Below are positions 1 through 19,735 of a stretch of DNA of 19,735 nt, piece after piece. Origin of the DNA: Hormoscilla sp. (GTDB taxonomy: Bacteria; Cyanobacteriota; Cyanobacteriia; Cyanobacteriales; Desertifilaceae); NCBI GenBank assembly GCA_051439505.1, contig JBFRWI010000221.1:1-19735 (forward strand), written 5' to 3'. The translations under genes were made by a program, and so were the position numbers. The notes below the pieces were generated by a model that was given only the letters and a program-made list of their open reading frames with translations, was not told the DNA's origin and ran no database searches. The stretch's first letter is position 1, and each line of letters begins with the position of its first letter.

Positions 1-40
1 GTTTAGCTTTGAATTGTAATTCATTGGTCTGCGCTGGCAT
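1..40 (-). CDS. 5' end of a gene running off the window (MPAQTNELQFKAK...), product unknown
   Basis: ATG at 40-38, frame open to the window edge; the ATG overlaps the TGA (42-40) of an upstream mini-ORF as TGATG. Only 13 codons visible. Confidence 0.5.
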   Translation of the reverse strand, partial: MPAQTNELQFKAK

Positions 41-72
41 CACCGCCAATTTTGGACATACCTTTTACGCAC
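40..72 (-). CDS. 10-aa upstream ORF (MRKRYVQNWR), a truncated paralog of the N-terminus of the 1471-1896 protein
   Basis: GGAGG Shine-Dalgarno, 5 nt, then GTG (72-70). Codons GTG CGT AAA AGG TAT GTC CAA AAT TGG align with GTG CAG AAA AGG TGT GCC CGA AAT CGG at 1896-1870. An in-frame ATG at 84 is an alternative start. Confidence 0.45.
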   Translation of the reverse strand: MRKRYVQNWR

Positions 73-240
73 TTCCACCTCCATGGGAAATCACTTCATT
101 AAGTGATGAAAGGCTGCGCTGAAGAGACTGAGATCGTAAAGACCGTCGAAGCCCGCTTCGTTGCCATCGGGATGCAAGACGATTGCATCTCCCGAAAGCA
201 AAAAATATTTCATCGCTACCGAGTCTCTACTCTACAATAA
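51..240 (-). promoter_or_regulatory. Promoter/structured 5' leader module, copy 1
   Basis: 120-159 matches 1944-1983 at 39/40 nt. Also shared with copy 2: TCACT-N6-AGTGA hairpin, GGAGGTGGAAGTGC RBS block and TCTACTCTACA box (226-236 = 2051-2061). Confidence 0.75.
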
Positions 241-347
241 CGGAATAAAGGATGACTCACGATCATGTTAGAGTTTACACGATTGAGTCTCGAACGGCAA
301 GAGAATCAAGTTTCTCATTTAAATCTTAAGTTGAAATAGGGTCTCAA

Positions 348-1376
348 TTATTTTTGATAAACCAAGGGTTCGGGTTCTGTAAAACTGGCAACAACATCCT
401 GTAAAATTTCTTCCAAGGATTTGCTCGGTTGCCAGCCAATATACTGCCGAATTTTACTATTATCGGGAACGCGGCGCTGCATGTCTTCAAAGCCCGGTGC
501 ATAAGCCTGTCCATAGGGAACAAATTCAATGGCAGATTGATTTCCTTGCTCTTTTGGGGTTGCCAGAGAAATCACTTTTTGGGCTAACTCTAAAATCCCG
601 ATTTCCTCTGTCGAACCCACATTGAAGACTTCTCCAATCGCTTCCCCACACTCGGACAGCGTTAATAAGGCTCTGACAGCATCGGCAACATGCAGGAAAC
701 AGCGACTCTGCCGACCATCCCCAAAAACGGTTAAGTTTTCTCCCTTCAACGCTTGCTGAACGAAGCGAGGGATGACCATGCCGTATTGTCCCGTTTGCCG
801 GGGACCGACGGTGTTAAATAAACGGGCAATGACAATCGGTAATCCTTTCTCACGATAATACGCTAAAGCTAAAAACTCATCCACCATTTTGGTCGCGGCA
901 TAAGACCAACGCGATCGGCAAGTGGGTCCCAACACGACATCATCATCTTCAACGAAGGGAACTTTATTGCCCTTTCCATATACTTCAGAGGTTGAAGCAA
1001 TCACGGTTTTCACCCGGTAACGAATCGCTGCTTGAAGAACGGACTCCATTCCCATCACGTTGGTTTCGATCGTGTGAACGGGCTTTTCGACAATCAACTT
1101 GACTCCAACTGCTGCCGCAAGATGAAGCGCGACATCGGCTTCTGACATTAACCGATCCAAGACGACTTCATCAGTAATGCTGGCATAGGCAAAGTGAAAA
1201 TTAGGATGGTTGAGAAGGTGGCGAATGTTATCCAAACTGCCCGTCGAGAGATTGTCAATGACTAAAACGCGACATCCTTGCTCGATCAAAGTATCGCATA
1301 TATGAGAACCTATAAATCCAGCTCCCCCCGTGACAAGGTAGGTTTTAGGTTGGGAAAACACTTTTGACGACACCAT
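348..1376 (-). CDS. NAD-dependent epimerase/dehydratase (extended SDR, WcaG/GalE/UDP-glucuronate decarboxylase-like)
   Basis: TGGAGFIG Rossmann motif, DNLSTG, HLAAAVGV, STSEVYG, YAATK (YxxxK), RLFNTVGPRQ, FGDGRQSRCF; 342 aa. Confidence 0.93.
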   Translation of the reverse strand: MVSSKVFSQPKTYLVTGGAGFIGSHICDTLIEQGCRVLVIDNLSTGSLDNIRHLLNHPNFHFAYASITDEVVLDRLMSEADVALHLAAAVGVKLIVEKPVHTIETNVMGMESVLQAAIRYRVKTVIASTSEVYGKGNKVPFVEDDDVVLGPTCRSRWSYAATKMVDEFLALAYYREKGLPIVIARLFNTVGPRQTGQYGMVIPRFVQQALKGENLTVFGDGRQSRCFLHVADAVRALLTLSECGEAIGEVFNVGSTEEIGILELAQKVISLATPKEQGNQSAIEFVPYGQAYAPGFEDMQRRVPDNSKIRQYIGWQPSKSLEEILQDVVASFTEPEPLVYQK

Positions 1377-1470
1377 TCAGTTTTAAGATTTTTTAACTTT
1401 TAGCCCAGTGTGACGAAAGTTGTGAAAAATGTCAATCTGTCAACAGAAGATCGATTCGTTACCAGATATA

Positions 1471-1896
1471 CTACATAAAGCGAAAATCTTTCACGCCGCC
1501 AAACTTCACCATCCGCGAATGCCGGCGAGTAAACTCACTCACGGATACATTGCCTCGGGGATCGATCACGCCAACAGCTTGCTGCCATAATGCTTGGGGG
1601 ACAGAGGAAACTCGATACTCGCGATCGCCCAAGCGACGGACGTGATACCAATCGACGGTTTCGCATTCGGGACACCAAAATGCTTCCAACCATTCTCCGG
1701 ATACCACCACCGAACCTCGTTGCGCGACGAGCATTAAAGCCGATCGCCGATTGACACCTCGCTCTTGTAGCTGTTTTGCCGAGTCTACATACAATGAATG
1801 CTTGGGACTGACACTATCTAAATAACAGCCATGAATGGGACAATAAATTGCTCTGCGCTTAGAGCGTTTCCGATTTCGGGCACACCTTTTCTGCAC
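1471..1896 (-). CDS. Hypothetical protein with an Arg-rich N-terminus and putative Zn ligands (141 aa from GTG 1896)
   Basis: KRCARNRKRSKRR N-terminus, CPIHGC and CPEC...YH motifs. GGAGG lies 5 nt before GTG 1896; the ORF-track start at 1902 overlaps the SD. Confidence 0.8.
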   Translation of the reverse strand: MQKRCARNRKRSKRRAIYCPIHGCYLDSVSPKHSLYVDSAKQLQERGVNRRSALMLVAQRGSVVVSGEWLEAFWCPECETVDWYHVRRLGDREYRVSSVPQALWQQAVGVIDPRGNVSVSEFTRRHSRMVKFGGVKDFRFM

Positions 1897-2065
1897 TTCC
1901 ACCTCCGGGGAAACTCACTTCGTTCAGTGACAGAAGGTTGGGTTGAAGAGACTGAGATCGTGAAGACCGTCGAAGCCCGCTTCTTAACCTCGATACGTAA
2001 CTTTGTTACGTTTGTCAAGGCCCAATAATATTTTGTATCATTACCAAGCATCTACTCTACAGTAA
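1874..2065 (-). promoter_or_regulatory. Promoter/structured 5' leader module, copy 2
   Basis: Block-wise match to 51-240; ACGTAAC-TTT-GTTACGT inverted repeat at 1995-2011. Confidence 0.75.
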
Positions 2066-2214
2066 AGCGTGATTTTTGTACAAGGGATCGATTGACAAAA
2101 TCATCCAAAATCAATGTCAACCCGTTTGTCGGCAACAAATTTTGTCCGGATCGAGTCAGTTATGTCAGTATGAAAATCAAGGGTCTCAATCTCATTCCTC
2201 ACGCGAAACGGGCT

Positions 2215-3150: not shown

Positions 3151-4314
3151 TCAGCCGCCCAGCGCTTGGGCGAGCCCGATGAAGAGCGGTATTCCCAAGG
3201 CAAGCGCAACTGGCGTGCCGACGGCTGTGGAGGAGCCGATGTAGGCAGAGGGATTGGCCGACGGGATGCCGGCTCGTAAAGTGGGCGGCCCCGAGATGTC
3301 TGAACTGGAGGAGGCGATGACGGCCATAATAACGACACCGCCAAGGCTGAATCCCGTGACGTAGTGGGCAATCATGCCGAGACCGAAAGCAATGAACCCA
3401 TGCAGAAGCGGCGCAACAAAGGAATATAGGGCATACCACTGGCCCACCTTGCGCAGCTCGCCGAGCCTTGCTGTGGCCTCCATACCCATGACCAGCATCA
3501 GTATCGAAAGCAGACCTCGGAAGAGGGGATTGAAGAAGCTCTCATAGATACTTTCCGGCCGGGTTAGCAGACCTAGAGCGAGGCCGAGCAGCAGTGCCGA
3601 TAGGGCGGAACCTTGGAGGCTTTCTTGGATGATGGGCCAGATCTTGACCCGCTTGCCTTCGGTATCGCGCTGGGGATACCCGCGTGCGACAATGCCCTGC
3701 TCGCTGGAATACCCGCCTGCGGTATTGGAATACTCCCCTGCGGTACTGGAATACTCCCCTGCGGCAACGGGCTGCTTGCTGAGATATTCCTGCTTGTCGA
3801 GCTGCTCCTCTGCGGCACGGCGCTGCTTCTGCTTGTTGACATAAAGGCTAGCCACGACGATCGCAGTTACGAGCGCTGGGATGTCCATGAAGGGATAGAG
3901 GGCAGCAGCCCAAGGCTCATATCCTACACCTTCCGATTCCAGTAGCGTCAGACCGGCGGCGAGGGTAGAACCACTCACAGCACCGAACAAGCCTGCGGTC
4001 GCGATGGCATCCACGAATTTGACATTCGGCAGCTTGGCTAGGGTGTAGCGCCCGATGAATACGATAAAGATTCCCGTTACCACAGCGAACACCGCGGGCA
4101 ACAACATCTCCGTCAGATTGGCATTGCGGATCGCAATGCCGCCGCTCAGGCCGACTTTGATGAGCAGCATGAAGACGATGAACTTATAGACCGGATCTGG
4201 AATGGTCAGTCGGCTATTGACGGCGGCAATGACCATACCACCAATAAGAAAGCCCAGTGTCGGGGACTGCAACTTCCCCAGGAAGAGCGTCCAGAAATCG
4301 GACAAAAAATCCAT
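3151..4314 (-). CDS. sbtA: Sodium-dependent bicarbonate transporter SbtA
   Basis: MDFLSDF...LQSPTLGFLIGG start, GLFGAVSGSTL, LYPFMDIPAL, ASSSSDISGPPTLRAGIPSANPSAYIG; two hydrophobic halves around a central loop; GAGGAGG RBS. Confidence 0.96.
   Translation of the reverse strand: MDFLSDFWTLFLGKLQSPTLGFLIGGMVIAAVNSRLTIPDPVYKFIVFMLLIKVGLSGGIAIRNANLTEMLLPAVFAVVTGIFIVFIGRYTLAKLPNVKFVDAIATAGLFGAVSGSTLAAGLTLLESEGVGYEPWAAALYPFMDIPALVTAIVVASLYVNKQKQRRAAEEQLDKQEYLSKQPVAAGEYSSTAGEYSNTAGGYSSEQGIVARGYPQRDTEGKRVKIWPIIQESLQGSALSALLLGLALGLLTRPESIYESFFNPLFRGLLSILMLVMGMEATARLGELRKVGQWYALYSFVAPLLHGFIAFGLGMIAHYVTGFSLGGVVIMAVIASSSSDISGPPTLRAGIPSANPSAYIGSSTAVGTPVALALGIPLFIGLAQALGG
3704..3766 (-). repeat. Three in-frame 21-nt tandem repeats in the SbtA central loop
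   Basis: ctggaatacccgcctgcggta / ttggaatactcccctgcggta / ctggaatactcccctgcggca, encoding AGEYSST-AGEYSNT-AGGYSSE. Confidence 0.9.
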
Positions 4315-6540: not shown

Positions 6541-6804
6541 CAATACTTCTCGGTTAAAAACTTGTCATTGCGAGGGGGGCAACTTACGAAACTATTTGTC
6601 GATCCTCGAAGCAATCCCCCCCGTTAGCGCAGCGGCCCGACGCAGGAGGGCTAGCAATCCCCCCGTCCTGTATGATATGAATAGCCCTTCTGCTTCGTCG
6701 GTGAGATTGCTTCGGGGGGGGGTTAACGAGCGTTGAGCGGGCCGTTAATCGCTACGTCCCCCCCCCTCGCAATGACAAATAACCGCAAAACCTACGAAGT
6801 ATTG
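6541..6804. mobile_element. MITE-like element A (264 bp), CAATACTTC...GAAGTATTG ends
   Basis: Terminal inverted repeat; degenerate 10-bp target duplication gcgtctactc/gcatctaata (7/10); left end identical over 17 nt to 16862-16878. Confidence 0.65.
6562..6778. repeat. Nested palindromic element GTCATTGCGAG...GAAGCAATC...GATTGCTTC...CTCGCAATGAC
   Basis: Perfect 18-bp IR 6562-6579/6761-6778 and inner 10-bp IR 6607-6616/6705-6714. Confidence 0.88.
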
Positions 6805-10725: not shown

Positions 10726-11898
10726 ATGAGTCAAGGGCACCAGGCGCAAGCAACTCCAAAGTTACATCCGGTACTACAGGGCGCTCTGAGGAGTTTAGAT
10801 GTTAACCTGGAATCAGAATTAAAACGATACCGACGCGCCCAAGCAGGAGAACCACTACAGCGTGGCCTGACAGTTAGTTCCCAAAATGGCATGCGCTCAG
10901 ATGCGATTTCAGCAATGCACCGATTGCCGGCTTTACAAAACAGTTGGCTGCTAACAGCACAATCAAATGGGGATCGCGTCCCCTATATGTCAGAGGTGAG
11001 GCCACAGAGAAACCACCGAAATACCGAACAGCTGGCGGAGGACGTTGTGGAAGCGCAGGACGCTGATGCTAGTTTGGCCTTAATATCAGCGGCAGGTCAG
11101 GTCGCTGCGAGTAGTGGAAGCGCACCGGACAAGGAGGTCGCGATCGCACAACTAGAGAAAGAACCAGATGACTATCTAGAATCTTCCGAAGAACTACTTA
11201 AAAGTCTGGCATCTCCAGCGGAAGTAGAAGCCGCAACTTCCGCAAATACCGAAAGTTGTAGAAAAAGCAACCTGCTGACTCCTTTGGGAATTGGCTCTAT
11301 GTTGCTGCTGTTGATGACTGGTGGAACCCTGTGGTTCGCAGGGAAAGACCCATCGCTAGTGGGTCATTTGAAGGGCGATCGCCCGGTGGAGGAGAGCAAC
11401 CCCAAGCAGGCGAACACCGATATGTCGGAAAGGGTAGCAGTGGATTTGAATTTGGATAGTATTAGTAGATTGCCCACTAGCTCCAGCTCCAGTCCTCAAC
11501 AGGTCTCCTCGCCGGCGGATCGAGAGCGATCGCCGCAAGTAGAACCAAAGCTGCCCGTGAATAGTCCGGCAACAGCACAACGCTTAGTGGAGATTCCTAC
11601 TGTGGTGCCAATACCAAGAACCTCGACCCAGCTTGACGGTTCGACGGAGGTCGCAAGTGAATTATCTACCCAGACTGATGCTGCTTTCGGGCAATACTAT
11701 TATGTGGTGGCTTCCGATCCAGGAGTTGACAGCCGAGAGCAGATCGAAAAAATAATTCCCGAAGCGACGGTGCGGGACTTTCCCCAAGGAAGGTTTCTGC
11801 AGTTGGGTGTCTTCCGGGAAGAGTCAAGGGCCCGAGCGCTGGTAGAGAATCTTGCCGACCGGGGAATTTATGCCCAGATATACAAGCATCGCTATTAA
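10726..11898 (+). CDS. Single-pass membrane protein with a C-terminal SPOR-like domain
   Basis: N-terminal ALRSLDVNLESELKRYRR, PDDYLESSEELL, TM segment LGIGSMLLLLMTGGTLWFA, S/P-rich linker, C-terminal LQLGVFREESRARALVENLADRGI; AGAGGAG RBS before ATG 10726. Confidence 0.75.
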   Translation: MSQGHQAQATPKLHPVLQGALRSLDVNLESELKRYRRAQAGEPLQRGLTVSSQNGMRSDAISAMHRLPALQNSWLLTAQSNGDRVPYMSEVRPQRNHRNTEQLAEDVVEAQDADASLALISAAGQVAASSGSAPDKEVAIAQLEKEPDDYLESSEELLKSLASPAEVEAATSANTESCRKSNLLTPLGIGSMLLLLMTGGTLWFAGKDPSLVGHLKGDRPVEESNPKQANTDMSERVAVDLNLDSISRLPTSSSSSPQQVSSPADRERSPQVEPKLPVNSPATAQRLVEIPTVVPIPRTSTQLDGSTEVASELSTQTDAAFGQYYYVVASDPGVDSREQIEKIIPEATVRDFPQGRFLQLGVFREESRARALVENLADRGIYAQIYKHRY

Positions 11899-11956
11899 CT
11901 TCAACCCCAGCAAGGCAAGGCAAAATGATAATAGTAGCGATCGAGGAGTCAGTGCG

Positions 11957-12622
11957 ATGGGATTGATAAAAAGTATCTGGCGAGGGATTAGATCCCAGAT
12001 CGATAGCCTGGTGGCAGAAGCCGCAGATCCAGAAAAAGTGCTGGAAGAGGCAGTGATGGATATGCAGGAAGATTTGATTCACATGCGGCAGGCAGTAGCT
12101 CAGGCGATCGCGACCCAAAAGCGTACACAAAGACAATGCTTGCAAGCGGAAGCTACCGCCGAGCAATGGCGAGAGCGAGCCAAAATAGCTCTGGTGCAAG
12201 GGGATGAAATGCTTGCCCGTCAAGCATTGGCGCGACGCCAACCCTACAGCGAAACGGCACGAAATCTGCGCCAGCAAATGCAACAGCAGAGCGTTGTTGT
12301 CAGCAAGCTCAGGCAGGACTTGCAAGCTTTAGAACAGAAAATTGCTGAGGTGAAAGCGAAAAAGGATTTGTATATCGCCCGCGCTCGCTCTGCGGTAGCC
12401 TCTATAGAAATCAACTCCATTATGGACGGGCTCAATTCGAGGGCTTCTAGGTCGGCCTGGGAGCGCATGGAAGAGCAAGTCCACCAGTCGGAAGCGATGG
12501 CCTCCCTTACGAGGGGTATGGGATCCGGTGAGGACTGGGACGAAAGATTTGCAGCAAGATCAGCCGGTAGCGATGTCGATCGGGAGTTAGCTTTGCTCAA
12601 ATCTCAAAGTTATCAAGGTTGA
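11957..12622 (+). CDS. pspA: PspA/IM30 family protein (short paralog, 221 aa)
   Basis: MGLIKSIWR...ADPEKVLEEAV.DMQEDL...ALVQGDEMLARQAL...WERMEEQV; no C-terminal extension; GAGGAG RBS before ATG 11957. Confidence 0.85.
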   Translation: MGLIKSIWRGIRSQIDSLVAEAADPEKVLEEAVMDMQEDLIHMRQAVAQAIATQKRTQRQCLQAEATAEQWRERAKIALVQGDEMLARQALARRQPYSETARNLRQQMQQQSVVVSKLRQDLQALEQKIAEVKAKKDLYIARARSAVASIEINSIMDGLNSRASRSAWERMEEQVHQSEAMASLTRGMGSGEDWDERFAARSAGSDVDRELALLKSQSYQG

Positions 12623-12942
12623 ACTTTCCATGGGTAACTTGGGGTAAGTCTTATGTAACGGAAGAAAATTACCACCAGTAGGTGTCATGACCCCCCTAAC
12701 GTAGGTCTAATCGGGGGACCTGCATTTTTCATCTTCCCGAGGGAGATAATTCCCGACATTGCCAGAAATTACTGGATTTTATGCAAGAGTTGACAGAATC
12801 GTTATCGGGTGCAGCACCCTCACCCGATGTGCTAAGACTAAAGCATAGCATATTAACCTGGTTCCATAGCAGGCGGAGCGATCGGGCTGACTGATGCTCA
12901 AGCCGAGCTTTTAAAAATACTACGGAAAGGAAAAACAGAATT

Positions 12943-13701
12943 ATGGGATTATTCGACCGCATTAGCCGAGTAATCAAGGCAAATATCAACGATCTGGTCA
13001 GCAAGGCTGAAGATCCTGAAAAGTTGCTAGAACAGTCTCTACTGGAGATGCAGGAGGATCTGGTGCAGCTGCGTCAGGCTGTGGCCAGCGCGATCGCCAG
13101 CCAAAAACGAGTTCAGCAACAATACTCCCAGGCTCAAGATCAAGTCAAGACCTGGCATCAGCGGGCGCAGCTAGCTCTGCAAAAAGGTGATGAAAATCTG
13201 GCGAGGGAAGCGCTGCAACGCAAAAAGACTCATGTAGACACGGCAACTACCCTCAAAGGGCAGTTGGAGCAACAAAACCAGCATGTAGACACTCTCAAAC
13301 GCAGCCTGCTGGCCCTAGAAGGGAAGATCTCGGAAGCCAAGACCAAAAAAGACATGCTCAAGGCCCGGCTGCAAGCTGCCAAGGCTCAAGAGCAAGTGCA
13401 AGAAACGGTTGGCAAGATCGGCACGTCCAGCGCCGCCGCTGCGTTCGATCGCATGGAAGAAAAGGTCTTGCAAATAGAAGCTCGTGCAGGGGCGGCAGGG
13501 GAGCTAGCTGGCGAGGATCTGGAACGCAAATTTGCTGCCCTGACAGGTAGCGATGTCGATGAGGAGTTGGCTCAGATGAAAGCTGAGATGGGTGGCGCTT
13601 CTCTATCCCAAGGACAGTTGCCGGCGGCTGAGCCGTCATCCTCTTCCGGTGATGATGCTGATGACTTGGAAAAGCTGCGTCGGGAACTGGATAAAATGTA
13701 A
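12943..13701 (+). CDS. vipp1: Vipp1/IM30 (ESCRT-III-like thylakoid membrane protein)
   Basis: MGLFDRISRVIKANINDLVSKAEDPEK, FDRMEEKV, plus linker and extra C-terminal helix DDLEKLRRELDKM. Confidence 0.93.
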   Translation: MGLFDRISRVIKANINDLVSKAEDPEKLLEQSLLEMQEDLVQLRQAVASAIASQKRVQQQYSQAQDQVKTWHQRAQLALQKGDENLAREALQRKKTHVDTATTLKGQLEQQNQHVDTLKRSLLALEGKISEAKTKKDMLKARLQAAKAQEQVQETVGKIGTSSAAAAFDRMEEKVLQIEARAGAAGELAGEDLERKFAALTGSDVDEELAQMKAEMGGASLSQGQLPAAEPSSSSGDDADDLEKLRRELDKM

Positions 13702-15596: not shown

Positions 15597-16491
15597 ATGA
15601 TTTTGCCCGAGGATGAATTTTTAATGAAATAACGCAGCAGCGAAATAATTGTTCTGAGGGCTATCCATGAGTTCTTGCAAGCATGCATAACCGTGGAAGA
15701 ATCTTACAAGGAGATCATCCGATCTATATTCCCAGGTTATATAGGAGCGCTATTTGAGCAAAGTTGCTTACAAAACACTTGCCACTCCCATGGGATCCCT
15801 GTTCCCTGGTTGTGCAGGAGGGCTGTTTATGGCTAAACAACAATTGGCGCAGATTATTTCAGAACACATTCGTCTGGCATTGGAGAATTTAAACCTGCGG
15901 CAAATAATTGCATCACAACTTATTCGCGACCCTCTGACAGGTTTATTCAATCGACGTTACATGGAAAAGTACCTGGAACGGGAGTTTAAAATATGCGATC
16001 GCAACGGGCAACCTCTGAGTATCATTATGCTGGACCTCGATCGCTTTAAGCACTTCCATGATAATTTTGGTCACTCTGCCTCGGATGGAGTCCTGCAAGA
16101 GTTGGGCATGTTTTTGCAAGAAAATATCCGTAATTTTGATATGGCCTGTCGCTACGGGGGAGACGAGTTCATGTTAATTCTGCCAGAAGTATCCCTAACC
16201 GACCAGCTAATTGCCTGTCGCTACGGGGGAGACGAGTTCATGTTAATTCTGCCAGAAGTATCTCTAGATAGTGCTGGACATCTGGCGGAGCAGTTGCGAG
16301 AAACAATTAAACATCTGCGCTTACAATATGGCGGTCACCAGGTGAGTTCTGTGACGGGAGCTGTGGGAGTAGCTTGTTTCCCAGAACATGGTTTAACGGG
16401 AAATGCCGCGATCTCGGCAGCTCGTGCAGCGCTCGATCGGGCAAAACAAGAAGGGCGCGATCGGGTGGTTACAGCAAGTGATATTTTATGA
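15597..16491 (+). pseudogene. Eroded GAF-GGDEF diguanylate cyclase gene
   Basis: ATG 15597 frame hits TAA at 15630-15632, then continues as a GAF-like start (FLQACITVEESY...FPGYIGALF). The GGDEF-containing ORF 15754-16491 is in another frame, lacks the GAF core and has RYGGDEF twice. Confidence 0.7.
16144..16262 (+). repeat. Exact 50-nt duplication (69-nt period) of the GGDEF motif segment
   Basis: 16144-16193 is identical to 16213-16262. Confidence 0.97.
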
Positions 16492-17141: not shown

Positions 17142-17323
17142 GCAGTAATAGTTCGTTGTCAGCAAGCAATAGCTTATTGTCAAGCTGCGTCTATGCTTGC
17201 GTTCCATACCATCTGCCGTTTCCAAACTTGCTGTACTCAATAAATAGCAAAACCTGATTGGGACATTAATAAGCCGCAAGTCCCTTAGCCCTGCGATCGC
17301 CGAACATAGAAGCGCTAAAGCGG

Positions 17324-17835
17324 TTACCACCAACCGGCTAAAACTATTGCCACCAACCGGCTAAAGCTCATACTGGCAACCGGGCTTTTTACCAAAACCG
17401 AATTACTATCAACCGGCTAAAGCTTTTACTACCAACCGGTGGTAACCCCTCAAATAAACACAACCGTATCTGCTAACACCTTATCTGATATCCAACGGGT
17501 GTAGTTGGATGGGGCTGTACACCGGTTGTATGCCAACCCGCCGGATGCAACTCAGGAAATAAGCGCGAAAGGGGTTGCTGCCAGTTGGTAGCAACCCCTC
17601 AAATCAAGACAACACCATCCCCATTTAATATCCAACGAGCGTAGTTGGATGCGACTGTACACCGGTTGCAAGCGCTTTAGCGCTTACTACTAACTGGCCA
17701 AAGCGCTTACTAACCGGTGGCAACCGCTCAAACGAGCACAAAACTATCTACCAACACCCCATCTGACATCCAACCAGTGTAGTTGGATGGGGCTGTACGC
17801 CGGTTGTATATCAACCCGCCCCATCCAACCCAGGC
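17324..17835. repeat. Composite non-coding array: 23-nt CAACCGG repeats plus three ~139-bp-spaced ATCCAAC-N7-GTTGGAT units
   Basis: CAACCGG at 17331, 17354, 17377, 17410, 17433; palindromes start at 17490, 17630, 17768. Confidence 0.85.
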
Positions 17836-17895
17836 AACAGGGGTGCGGTCACAAATAGTTGATAGCCGGGAGTCGAGACGCGATGCATGTAATAT

Positions 17896-17971
17896 AGCCC
17901 GCGCAGGCGGGCTTAGTTCCTGTAGCCGGACCCCTCGTTCCCACGGCTCTGCCCGGCGATGCCTGGGAACG
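17896..17971. repeat. Two REP-like hairpins just downstream of glyQ (possible 3'-end structure)
   Basis: AGCCCGC-GCAG-GCGGGCT (17896-17913) and CGTTCCCA...TGGGAACG (17936-17971). Confidence 0.6.
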
Positions 17972-18859: not shown

Positions 18860-19013
18860 AGAGAAATAGCCTCCCCGAAAAAAAATTTCCAAAAAAATTT
18901 TACCCCAAAACCCTCTCAGGGACTAGGTTTCAGAGATCTGCGAACCATCGCGTCCCAACCAGCAATCAGCAACCACGATCTCAGAAGATGGGCGAGGCTT
19001 CGACCAGGGGTTA

Positions 19014-19439
19014 TCACCGGCGATTTGGACAGCCTTTCAACTGGCTCCGGAACTTTTGGGCTTCAAACCCTTGTATGTCAAGCAAATCAGCCTTATGACC
19101 CACGGGAGTGGCTCGCGATCGCCCCTCCGGAGAGAGGACCGGTCTGACTCAGAGCACATACCGGTCCATAAACTGTCACCCTCGCAGCACCACCGGCAAT
19201 CAGGGTCCAAGCCTCGCCAAGGGAATTTCACTGGCGATTTGGACAGCCTTTCAACTCGCTCCGGAACTTTTTGGGCTTTTATTTATAAGTTTTTCTCGCA
19301 TCAAACCCTTGTCTGTCATGCAAATCAGCCTTATTACCCAGACAATAGCCAGCGATCGCCCCTCCGGAGAGATCACCGGTCTGACTCAGAGCACATACCG
19401 GTCCAGAAGCTAGAACAATCCCATCACCACCGGCAATCA
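19014..19439 (+). repeat. Imperfect tandem duplication of ~190-210 bp units (19014-19202 and 19228-19439)
   Basis: Shared blocks GGCGATTTGGACAGCCTTTCAACT, TCAAACCCTTGT.TGTCA.GCAAATCAGCCTTAT, GCGATCGCCCCTCCGGAGAGA, ACCGGTCTGACTCAGAGCACATACCGGTCCA, CACCACCGGCAATCA. Confidence 0.92.
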
Positions 19440-19735
19440 TCAGAGTTTTTCTGGTCTTTTCACCGGCAACTTACCTCGGGCCACCGGCATAAATGCGACC
19501 TCGAACGCCGAATTCGTGAGTTATTACCTACTAAAATCCTCGTTCGAGCAGGAAATCCTGCTCCGATCCAAGCCTCGCCAAGGTGCGATCGCCGGTGATA
19601 TAGCCAGGATTTCCACCGCCTCGGGAACTTTTTTCGCTTTTTTTCAGAAAAATTTTAGCGGCTCAAACCCTTACCCAGAAAGCATTTCAGAATTTGGAGA
19701 AAAAAAACTTCCCAAAAAACTTGAAATTGGGGTTG

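Follow-up and report, generated by a model that had tools for sequence, protein, structure and literature searches.

The contig JBFRWI010000221.1 of Hormoscilla sp. (assembly GCA_051439505.1; genome G000, 6.47 Mb) raises the question of what a short leader module does when it stands twice on one strand, on either side of a nucleotide-sugar epimerase gene. To answer it, we analyzed the whole contig (C221) as a window of 19,735 nucleotides (nt), which begins at the contig end at position 1. A preliminary description of the sequence had suggested that the module is an RNA leader bound by the protein encoded behind its second copy. The core of the module is a structured RNA with compensatory changes, it is linked across cyanobacteria to one family of small proteins (the Alr5224 family, after alr5224 of Nostoc sp. 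PCC 7120), and it precedes long polysaccharide operons, facing in the direction of their transcription. RNA and protein very probably form one system, a conclusion more secure than the step that they control; for that step we propose two-part RNA-plus-protein antitermination with possible autorepression, a reading whose chances we consider evenly balanced.

The duplicated leader and its RNA structure

As the preliminary description had stated, the module occurs twice on the minus strand; the copies lie 1824 nt apart and share 79% identity over 142 nt (repeat family D2; blastn E 2e-28), and a blastn and model search of the G000 genome gave no third copy. Conservation between the copies is block-wise, again as first described: the promoter-like box TGTAGAGTAGA is identical at 11/11 positions and the 40-nt core at 39/40, against 36/68 for the spacer between them, 18/25 for the loop of the second stem (P2), 27/32 for the stretch comprising the Shine-Dalgarno (SD) sequence, linker and tail, and 30/48 for the next 48 columns, the coding part of a gene relic (core versus spacer and relic, Fisher P 6e-8). 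The repeat is a promoter-leader-gene-start cassette. The claim that both copies lead a start codon holds for copy 2, where GTG 1896 opens an intact 141-amino-acid (aa) gene of the Alr5224 family (1471..1896, minus strand; SD at 1906-1902), also given as 141 aa in the collection's own annotation, but GTG 72 behind copy 1 opens only a relic of that gene's start, 10 codons ending in TGA at 42-40 (tail and decayed start, 1..72, minus strand), after which similarity fades and the contig ends. Likewise, the repeat of ~190 nt is real but not wholly non-coding, its similarity extending ~70 nt into this relic.

The fold consists of a hairpin, P1, with a 2-nt U-Y bulge, G-C and A-U pairs and a 1-nt bulge, followed after ~6 nt by P2, which closes a loop of highly variable length, and then by the conserved tail. 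In copy 2, P1 (1945..1983, minus strand), recognized from fold, covariation and column conservation, runs from an outer stem and a 5-bp stem to the U-Y bulge (1973-1972), the G-C and A-U pairs, a 1-nt Y bulge (1969), a 4-bp stem and the loop, while in P2 (1901..1938, minus strand) positions 1938-1933 pair with 1906-1901, which contain the SD. Copy 1 has the same P1 fold (121..159, minus strand; model match 59.2 bits) and a P2 (77..114, minus strand; R2 match 83.9 bits) in which 114-109 pair with 82-77, including three G-U pairs as read from the sequence. The block TCACT-N6-AGTGA, first listed among the conserved elements, proved to lie within the variable loop of P2, and the three closest relatives do not preserve it.

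Covariation, proposed at the outset as a check, supports this structure. The RNA model matches 76 of 80 homolog loci, which themselves partly built it. Two-sided pair changes numbered 58 versus 21 shuffled in alignment A4, 15 versus 3 in a further test, 169 versus 64 in A9 and 192 versus 57 in A10 (50 copies, nearly all outside the model seed), counts that lean high because the alignments were structure-fitted and the kin related; for A4, A9 and A10, none of 500 shuffles reached the observed value and all slid controls were exceeded. All seven P2 pairs vary on both sides in A9 and A10, and the pair preceding the bulge changes from U-A to C-G in 10 sequences. A structure-blind swap test of P2 was passed (0/1000) by copies scored as unlinked to the gene, among which the pattern used for the loop-length and swap analyses had misfiled some linked ones; in gene-linked copies P2 was barely above control, the test being weak there because of too little variation. 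Two conserved G-U pairs (108 and 86 of 113) are compatible with the sense strand only, 137 of 147 copies face into the next open reading frame (ORF), with 162 of 163 located outside long ORFs; the structure therefore belongs to the transcript. It rests on covariation because single-sequence folding was not significant (z +1.23 to -1.02, four folds). Two further pairings were rejected: a third hairpin, P3, in the tail was unsupported in unlinked copies (the swap control was equally high, 873/1000), and a competing pairing between the bulge and the linker that follows P2 showed no covariation. In agreement with the earlier statement that the core resembles no recognized element, Rfam, including JUMPstart, epsC/EAR, wcaG, manA and the riboswitches, gave no element match at an E of ≤1 in the window or in six element-bearing loci.

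Upstream of the core, the linkers had been described as diverged, which is true of the spacer sequence, but the spacer nevertheless folds as a hairpin, P0, in both copies and the three closest relatives (5/5, z -2.75 to -4.37). It occupies 1986..2022 in copy 2 (z -4.37 for 1985-2047) and, with a different sequence at the same position, 161..202 in copy 1 (z -2.75 for 161-222), both on the minus strand; as a family-wide feature P0 was ruled out, with z below -2 in only 24 of 191 copies, and we regard it as clade-specific. The candidate promoter of copy 2 (2051..2083, minus strand) would consist of a TAGAGT -10-like box at 2059-2054 and a weak -35-like hexamer at 2083-2078, separated by an 18-nt spacer. 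Its box recurs 11/11 in the candidate -10 region of copy 1 (226..236, minus strand) and nearly so in the three relatives, and a sigma-70 scan did not report this promoter.

The 141-aa gene (1896-1471) is followed after 94 nt, as first noted, by the epimerase gene (1376-348; 348..1376, minus strand), which encodes a 342-aa NAD-dependent nucleotide-sugar epimerase/dehydratase (PF16363, E 1e-62; PF01370, E 1e-57) scoring under every NCBIfam equivalog cut-off shown, and copy 1 comes after it. The three closest relatives (L001-L003, two of which are named Spirulina sp.) carry a single copy each, with the epimerase directly followed by an ABC exporter; the duplication is therefore local. A single contig from sequencing run X1 spans 139-1983 without difference and reaches both cores, although it is not independent support because X1 may be the source sample. 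Five strain variants fall between 31 and 168, none inside P1 of copy 1, and a variant at 42 in runs X1 and X2 abolishes the relic stop codon. Overlapping sequence that would extend the contig past position 1 was looked for in sequencing runs and relatives, and none was found. A terminator-like hairpin at 1850-1865, in the arginine-rich coding start of the 141-aa gene and ~15 nt past the tail, is at chance level regionally.

Linkage of the RNA to the Alr5224 family and to polysaccharide operons

The 141-aa protein has 890 homologs at an E of ≤0.001; among the matches listed (120 of 890), those with names are cyanobacterial hypothetical proteins, including alr5224 (62%), and a profile search of the family gave 204 clusters at 50% identity. 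The protein fell into no Pfam or NCBIfam family at an E of ≤1 and no PHROGs family, its profile retrieved no PDB sequence, and an Atlas search returned only unnamed cyanobacterial clusters. Of the CxxHxC and CxxC motifs first pointed out, C19, H22, C75 and C78 are conserved in 81, 79, 81 and 81 of 81 close homologs and make up a putative zinc site, but C24 of the first motif, present in 76 of 81 close homologs, is found in only 8 of 49 distant ones. R9, R11 and R15 of the arginine-rich N-terminus occur in 81/81 close homologs, and the predicted isoelectric point is 10.2. A structure model (predicted local distance difference test score, 78.8) has a beta-rich core and two helices; Foldseek found nothing at an E of ≤0.001 in PDB or BFVD, and the best VIA-align row reached a Z of 5.7 (root-mean-square deviation, 3.1; 70 residues aligned, with residues 118-143 barely tested), weak rows including the NrdR zinc ribbon (Z 3.6).

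Co-occurrence of RNA and protein was assessed in a phylum sample of 301 genomes and a class sample of 151 cyanobacterial genomes, which partly overlap; the linkage and covariation counts include related genomes and are to that extent not independent. In the phylum sample, 38 of the 44 genomes that encode a close homolog contained the exact core pattern and none of the 257 others did (92 of these from the same class); the RNA model added G026, G074 and G261. In the class sample, RNA was present in 40 genomes, protein in 45, both in 39 and neither in 105, so that the protein accompanies the RNA in 39 of 40 genomes (the lone RNA-only genome being 86% complete) and the RNA the protein in 39 of 45. 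With at least 19 families of the class sample carrying the element, conservation of the core across cyanobacteria and its co-occurrence with the protein, both anticipated from the single sequence, are borne out. Decay is seen on both sides: where the family gene is a relic, as in G095 and G217, the element is damaged; in genus g22 (five genomes, no intact gene found), two genomes retain such a damaged element ahead of a relic gene. Some RNA-positive genomes (G390) contain only distant family members, and upstream of 14 distant homologs (L111-L124) no R1 match was found save one marginal.

Several observations stand beside these counts. By eye, L112:3929-4000 holds a divergent P1 look-alike before a distant (33%) paralog, a possible co-diverged pair that the R2 model misses. 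Five genomes of family f49 (G309, G323, G339, G379 and G409) carry 4-8 protein paralogs each, only some with an element. Model matches in G105 and G167 (L185, L186, L199) were attributed to chance. A metagenome scan gave at least 121 stretches, of which 79 were scored with R1; 42 were full-length matches and the rest mostly chance hits of the short pattern. Seventeen pattern matches on viral contigs were all only partial, weak model matches.

The genomic setting is that of polysaccharide synthesis. A scan of 32 neighboring proteins from 31 of the 80 homolog loci returned mostly Wzm, Wzc, ABC exporters, epimerases, GMD, sugar dehydrogenases and glycosyltransferases, and in the remaining loci the next gene mostly starts, by eye, like a tested Wzm. 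In Nostoc sp. PCC 7120, alr5224 comes after the glycosyltransferase gene alr5223. Over-expression of sigJ raises both about 3.3-3.7-fold (PMC2779892), RNA-seq read counts for alr5224 are low (PMC3141674), and one or the other is named only in tables in the accessible parts of PMC1906773 and PMC12267927. The papers naming alr5224 treat it as hypothetical, without function or RNA partner.

Additional copies of the element, of which a genome may have up to 12, stand at the head of polysaccharide operons remote from the family gene, so that the predicted link to polysaccharide genes stands. G071 has 12 elements, its gene lying elsewhere with only a weak element remnant, and G390 has nine, none at its three protein paralogs, with Wzx, Wzc, Wza, a priming transferase, a nucleotidyl transferase or a GT2 enzyme encoded first behind eight of the nine. 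Such trans layouts are also found in G302, G303, G335, G351, G363 and G365, while in G117 and G157 the element stands 3' of the family gene, before a glycosyltransferase gene. The suggestion that the leader controls its own unit and the next thus needs amending in two respects: copy 1 leads no intact gene in the window, and the scope across the family is wider, with copies far from the gene. Unlinked copies lie a median of 150 nt from the next start codon, 81 of 100 of them over 50 nt away, and some loci hold tandem copies (L177, L359, L360). At L162:4384-14630 in G071, upstream of a polysaccharide cluster, at least six near-identical Uma2-family genes are interspersed with five elements; at L363 and L364, elements stand back to back on opposite strands between divergent genes, with an aldo-keto reductase gene behind one and the family gene behind the other.

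Proposed antitermination and its alternatives

In the mechanism that we propose, transcription would start some 60-70 nt upstream of the element, the nascent RNA would fold into P1 and P2, and RNA polymerase would pause at the tail ~20 nt beyond P2. The Alr5224-family protein would contact the P1 bulge through its arginine-rich arm and, loaded onto the paused complex, allow read-through of polysaccharide operons of 10-20 kb or more. Where the gene is first in its own operon behind the element, as is often the case, P2 would also cover the ribosome-binding site of the gene, and the protein may in this way keep its own production in check; elsewhere, a single gene would act in trans on many dispersed elements. 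In G000, the cassette would have been duplicated behind the epimerase gene, the second gene start then decaying and the RNA being retained.

The genomic features of processive antitermination, namely a promoter-proximal element, long operons and a dedicated factor, are all present. Sigma-70-like boxes are seen by eye ~60 nt upstream in most of eight aligned G071 copies. The co-directional run behind the element has a median length of 18 kb (15/20 at least 8 kb) versus 2.5 kb (13% at least 8 kb) for 524 run heads in G000, a contrast tempered by the hand-picking of the 20 loci from good assemblies and the use of one other genome as control; L414, scored 0 through a spurious antisense ORF, was retained. 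In P1, the first bulge position is U in 112/112 copies and the second only Y, followed by G (110) and A (112) with partners C (110) and U (111). A bulge pyrimidine at least two positions ahead of a G-C and then an A-U pair is the secondary structure of the arginine sandwich motif, formed by U23:A27-U38 in TAR and U40:A43-U66 in 7SK (PMC6189040), and P1 has this arrangement. The tail is constrained at the nucleotide level: 107 of 108 genes led by the element use CAG for its Gln codon, versus 5 of 10 genes lacking the element, and the rest of the same genes use CAA and CAG at 667:437. In copy 2, the tail (1879..1896, minus strand) overlaps codons 1-6, and its G 1891, T 1882 and G 1881 fit the consensus pause G-10, Y-1, G+1 (PMC5423485), so that a pause is predicted there. 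In 124 unlinked copies these bases occur in 98, 115 and 84 tails, and the motif is found in 92 of 123 tails versus 63 shuffled and 36-42 in the following windows, counts that depend on the model that positioned the tail. A single NusG-family match was obtained in G000 and in each of five element-bearing genomes.

Besides the limits attached to these counts, several observations weigh against antitermination. Polysaccharide clusters are long in any case, and the gene behind many dispersed copies is a passenger within such clusters (Uma2, DUF29, nucleotidyltransferase or others), while behind two it is a reductase gene. Six of 45 protein-positive class genomes lack the RNA, and in genus g9 three genomes encode a close homolog (~52% identity) and carry no element, the two model matches there being chance hits antisense to a gene. 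The innermost core pairs scarcely vary and are therefore conserved rather than proven; the base before the P1 bulge is U or C versus A in TAR and 7SK; and the tail of copy 1 has its G-10 one base out of register. Sites resembling the consensus pause also abound, with an excess at translation starts (PMC5423485). Terminator-like hairpins follow 6 of 191 copies and equally 6 on the opposite strand, and leader terminators as an enriched feature behind the element were accordingly rejected.

A possible but rather unlikely alternative is post-transcriptional: the protein, bound to P1, would protect or process the long mRNA and, through P2, repress its own translation as ribosomal proteins do, leaving polymerase unaffected. 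Covariation and co-occurrence fit this equally well, the leaders have no terminators, and 31 of 34 gene-linked copies have the SD within the 3' strand of P2. However, translational control is possible only where the gene start lies within the tail, a situation found in 34 of the 134 copies scored; most unlinked copies (81 of 100) lie too far from a start codon for occlusion, an SD-like word is absent from 86 of 121, and the pause-like tail and the link to very long runs would be left unexplained. A metabolite- or ion-sensing riboswitch for polysaccharide genes, with the protein gene merely one target, is unlikely. The near-invariant bulged core, the tandem copies and downstream genes that are varied but of one pathway would suit such a switch, but the element is almost never found without the protein, even with the gene far off, it is damaged where the gene is a relic, most copies have neither terminator nor SD platform, and the bulge does not covary with the linker after P2. 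More improbable still is a DNA operator or DNA hairpin for a zinc-ribbon transcription factor, which the zinc-ligand pattern, the weak NrdR-like fold rows and the promoter-proximal location would recall; against it, P1 and P2 pairing is preserved despite sequence change, the G-U pairs are strand-specific, orientation tracks transcription and the P2 loop is very variable in length. A neutral or mobile repeat (a recent duplication, miniature element or cassette recombination site) is very improbable, for although the three closest relatives are single-copy and near-identical repeats with passenger genes alongside occur within G071, G086 and G223, the two copies are conserved block-wise, the pairs covary, the element spans at least 19 families, no terminal repeats were seen by eye in nine G071 copies, and none of the 17 viral pattern matches is a convincing copy.

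Further features of the window and relation to known systems

Elsewhere in the window, 17300-17850 is a non-coding array of nested direct repeats (~140- and 278-nt periods, 23-nt units) with no copy elsewhere in the genome. A short palindromic repeat at 17880-17935, the source of a sub-threshold CRISPR-DR28 match, has 194 blast matches on 103 other contigs and is therefore a dispersed repeat, not CRISPR. A miniature mobile element with perfect 18-nt terminal inverted repeats lies at 6562-6778 (260 matches on 114 other contigs), and at 18992-19649 an 83-nt unit occurs three times inside longer repeats, with a similar array on contig C68. Within genes, three 21-nt tandem repeats lie in an SbtA-family transporter gene (3705-3767), and a 57-nt internal duplication (16141-16266) repeats the GGDEF-like motif of a diguanylate-cyclase-like ORF. 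The two tandem genes at 11852-13701 we take to be PspA/Vipp1-like paralogs. The ops 12-mer, searched with one mismatch allowed, gave no match in 1-2100 and two chance-level matches elsewhere in the window.

The element and its protein work like several known systems, if antitermination is right, and belong to none of those tested. LoaP and the dfn/mln leader hairpin of Bacillus velezensis share a protein probably loaded through a leader hairpin, a downstream pause that aids loading, long biosynthetic operons and several leaders, but LoaP is a NusG paralog acting on a UNCG hairpin with a leader terminator (PMC12691694); the present protein has no NusG domain, the loop varies in length and sequence, and leader terminators are rare, the last point also counting against antitermination. 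The conAn system of pLS20 (ConAn1 protein and conAn2 RNA), compared by description, likewise places a protein and an RNA at the head of a long operon, but of Gram-positive plasmid conjugation (PMC8955417), in contrast to the chromosomal polysaccharide loci and trans layouts found here. RfaH with ops/JUMPstart and UpxY resemble it in an element heading several polysaccharide operons, with the factor first or encoded apart (PMC7819879, PMC2864571); they are NusG paralogs reading a DNA signal, whereas here no JUMPstart match and one NusG match per genome tested were found. EAR (the epsC motif) of Bacillus eps operons is also a structured RNA acting in antitermination of polysaccharide operons, but it is described as RNA-only (PMC2864571, PMC8955417), while the present element has no Rfam match and goes together with a protein family of its own. 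HIV Tat-TAR and HEXIM/Tat-7SK share the pyrimidine bulge, with U first and then G-C and A-U, and an arginine-rich partner (PMC6189040). This likeness is one of secondary structure only: the preceding base differs, the polymerase here is bacterial, and no homology was found. Tat also binds zinc, and the arginine-rich arms of lambda N and Nun recognize boxB. By this analogy, the system might be a Tat/TAR-like host device, in which a small zinc- and arginine-rich protein of no known fold, seated on a TAR-type bulge and loaded at a pause, would processively antiterminate a polysaccharide regulon of 10-20 kb or more without a NusG paralog, a tentative proposal that we regard as somewhat doubtful.

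In the open full-text literature, with most subscription papers outside its scope, no description of the element or of a function for the Alr5224 family was found. As far as their accessible main texts go, PMC11109978 and PMC8632094 do not treat cyanobacteria; PMC2864571 lists other cyanobacterial motifs, covered by Rfam. Geissler et al. 2026 (PMC12873609) reported 409 novel structures anchored on 931 KEGG ortholog groups, and the available portion of the main text mentions neither polysaccharide, glycosyl nor alr5224; the element may figure among these 409 unnamed structures.

The expression and coordination of the very long sheath, capsule and exopolysaccharide clusters of cyanobacteria are poorly known, and an RNA element with its candidate partner offers a direct handle on them, consisting of one gene and one 110-nt element, in model strains such as Nostoc PCC 7120 (alr5224). 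Even under the post-transcriptional alternative, the element remains a cis-regulatory RNA that has a regulon and has apparently not been described before. If antitermination is true, new protein and RNA families would take on the role that RfaH, LoaP and UpxY play elsewhere, recognizing RNA through a layout known until now mainly from viral and eukaryotic elongation control, and they would provide a tool for engineering polysaccharide output.

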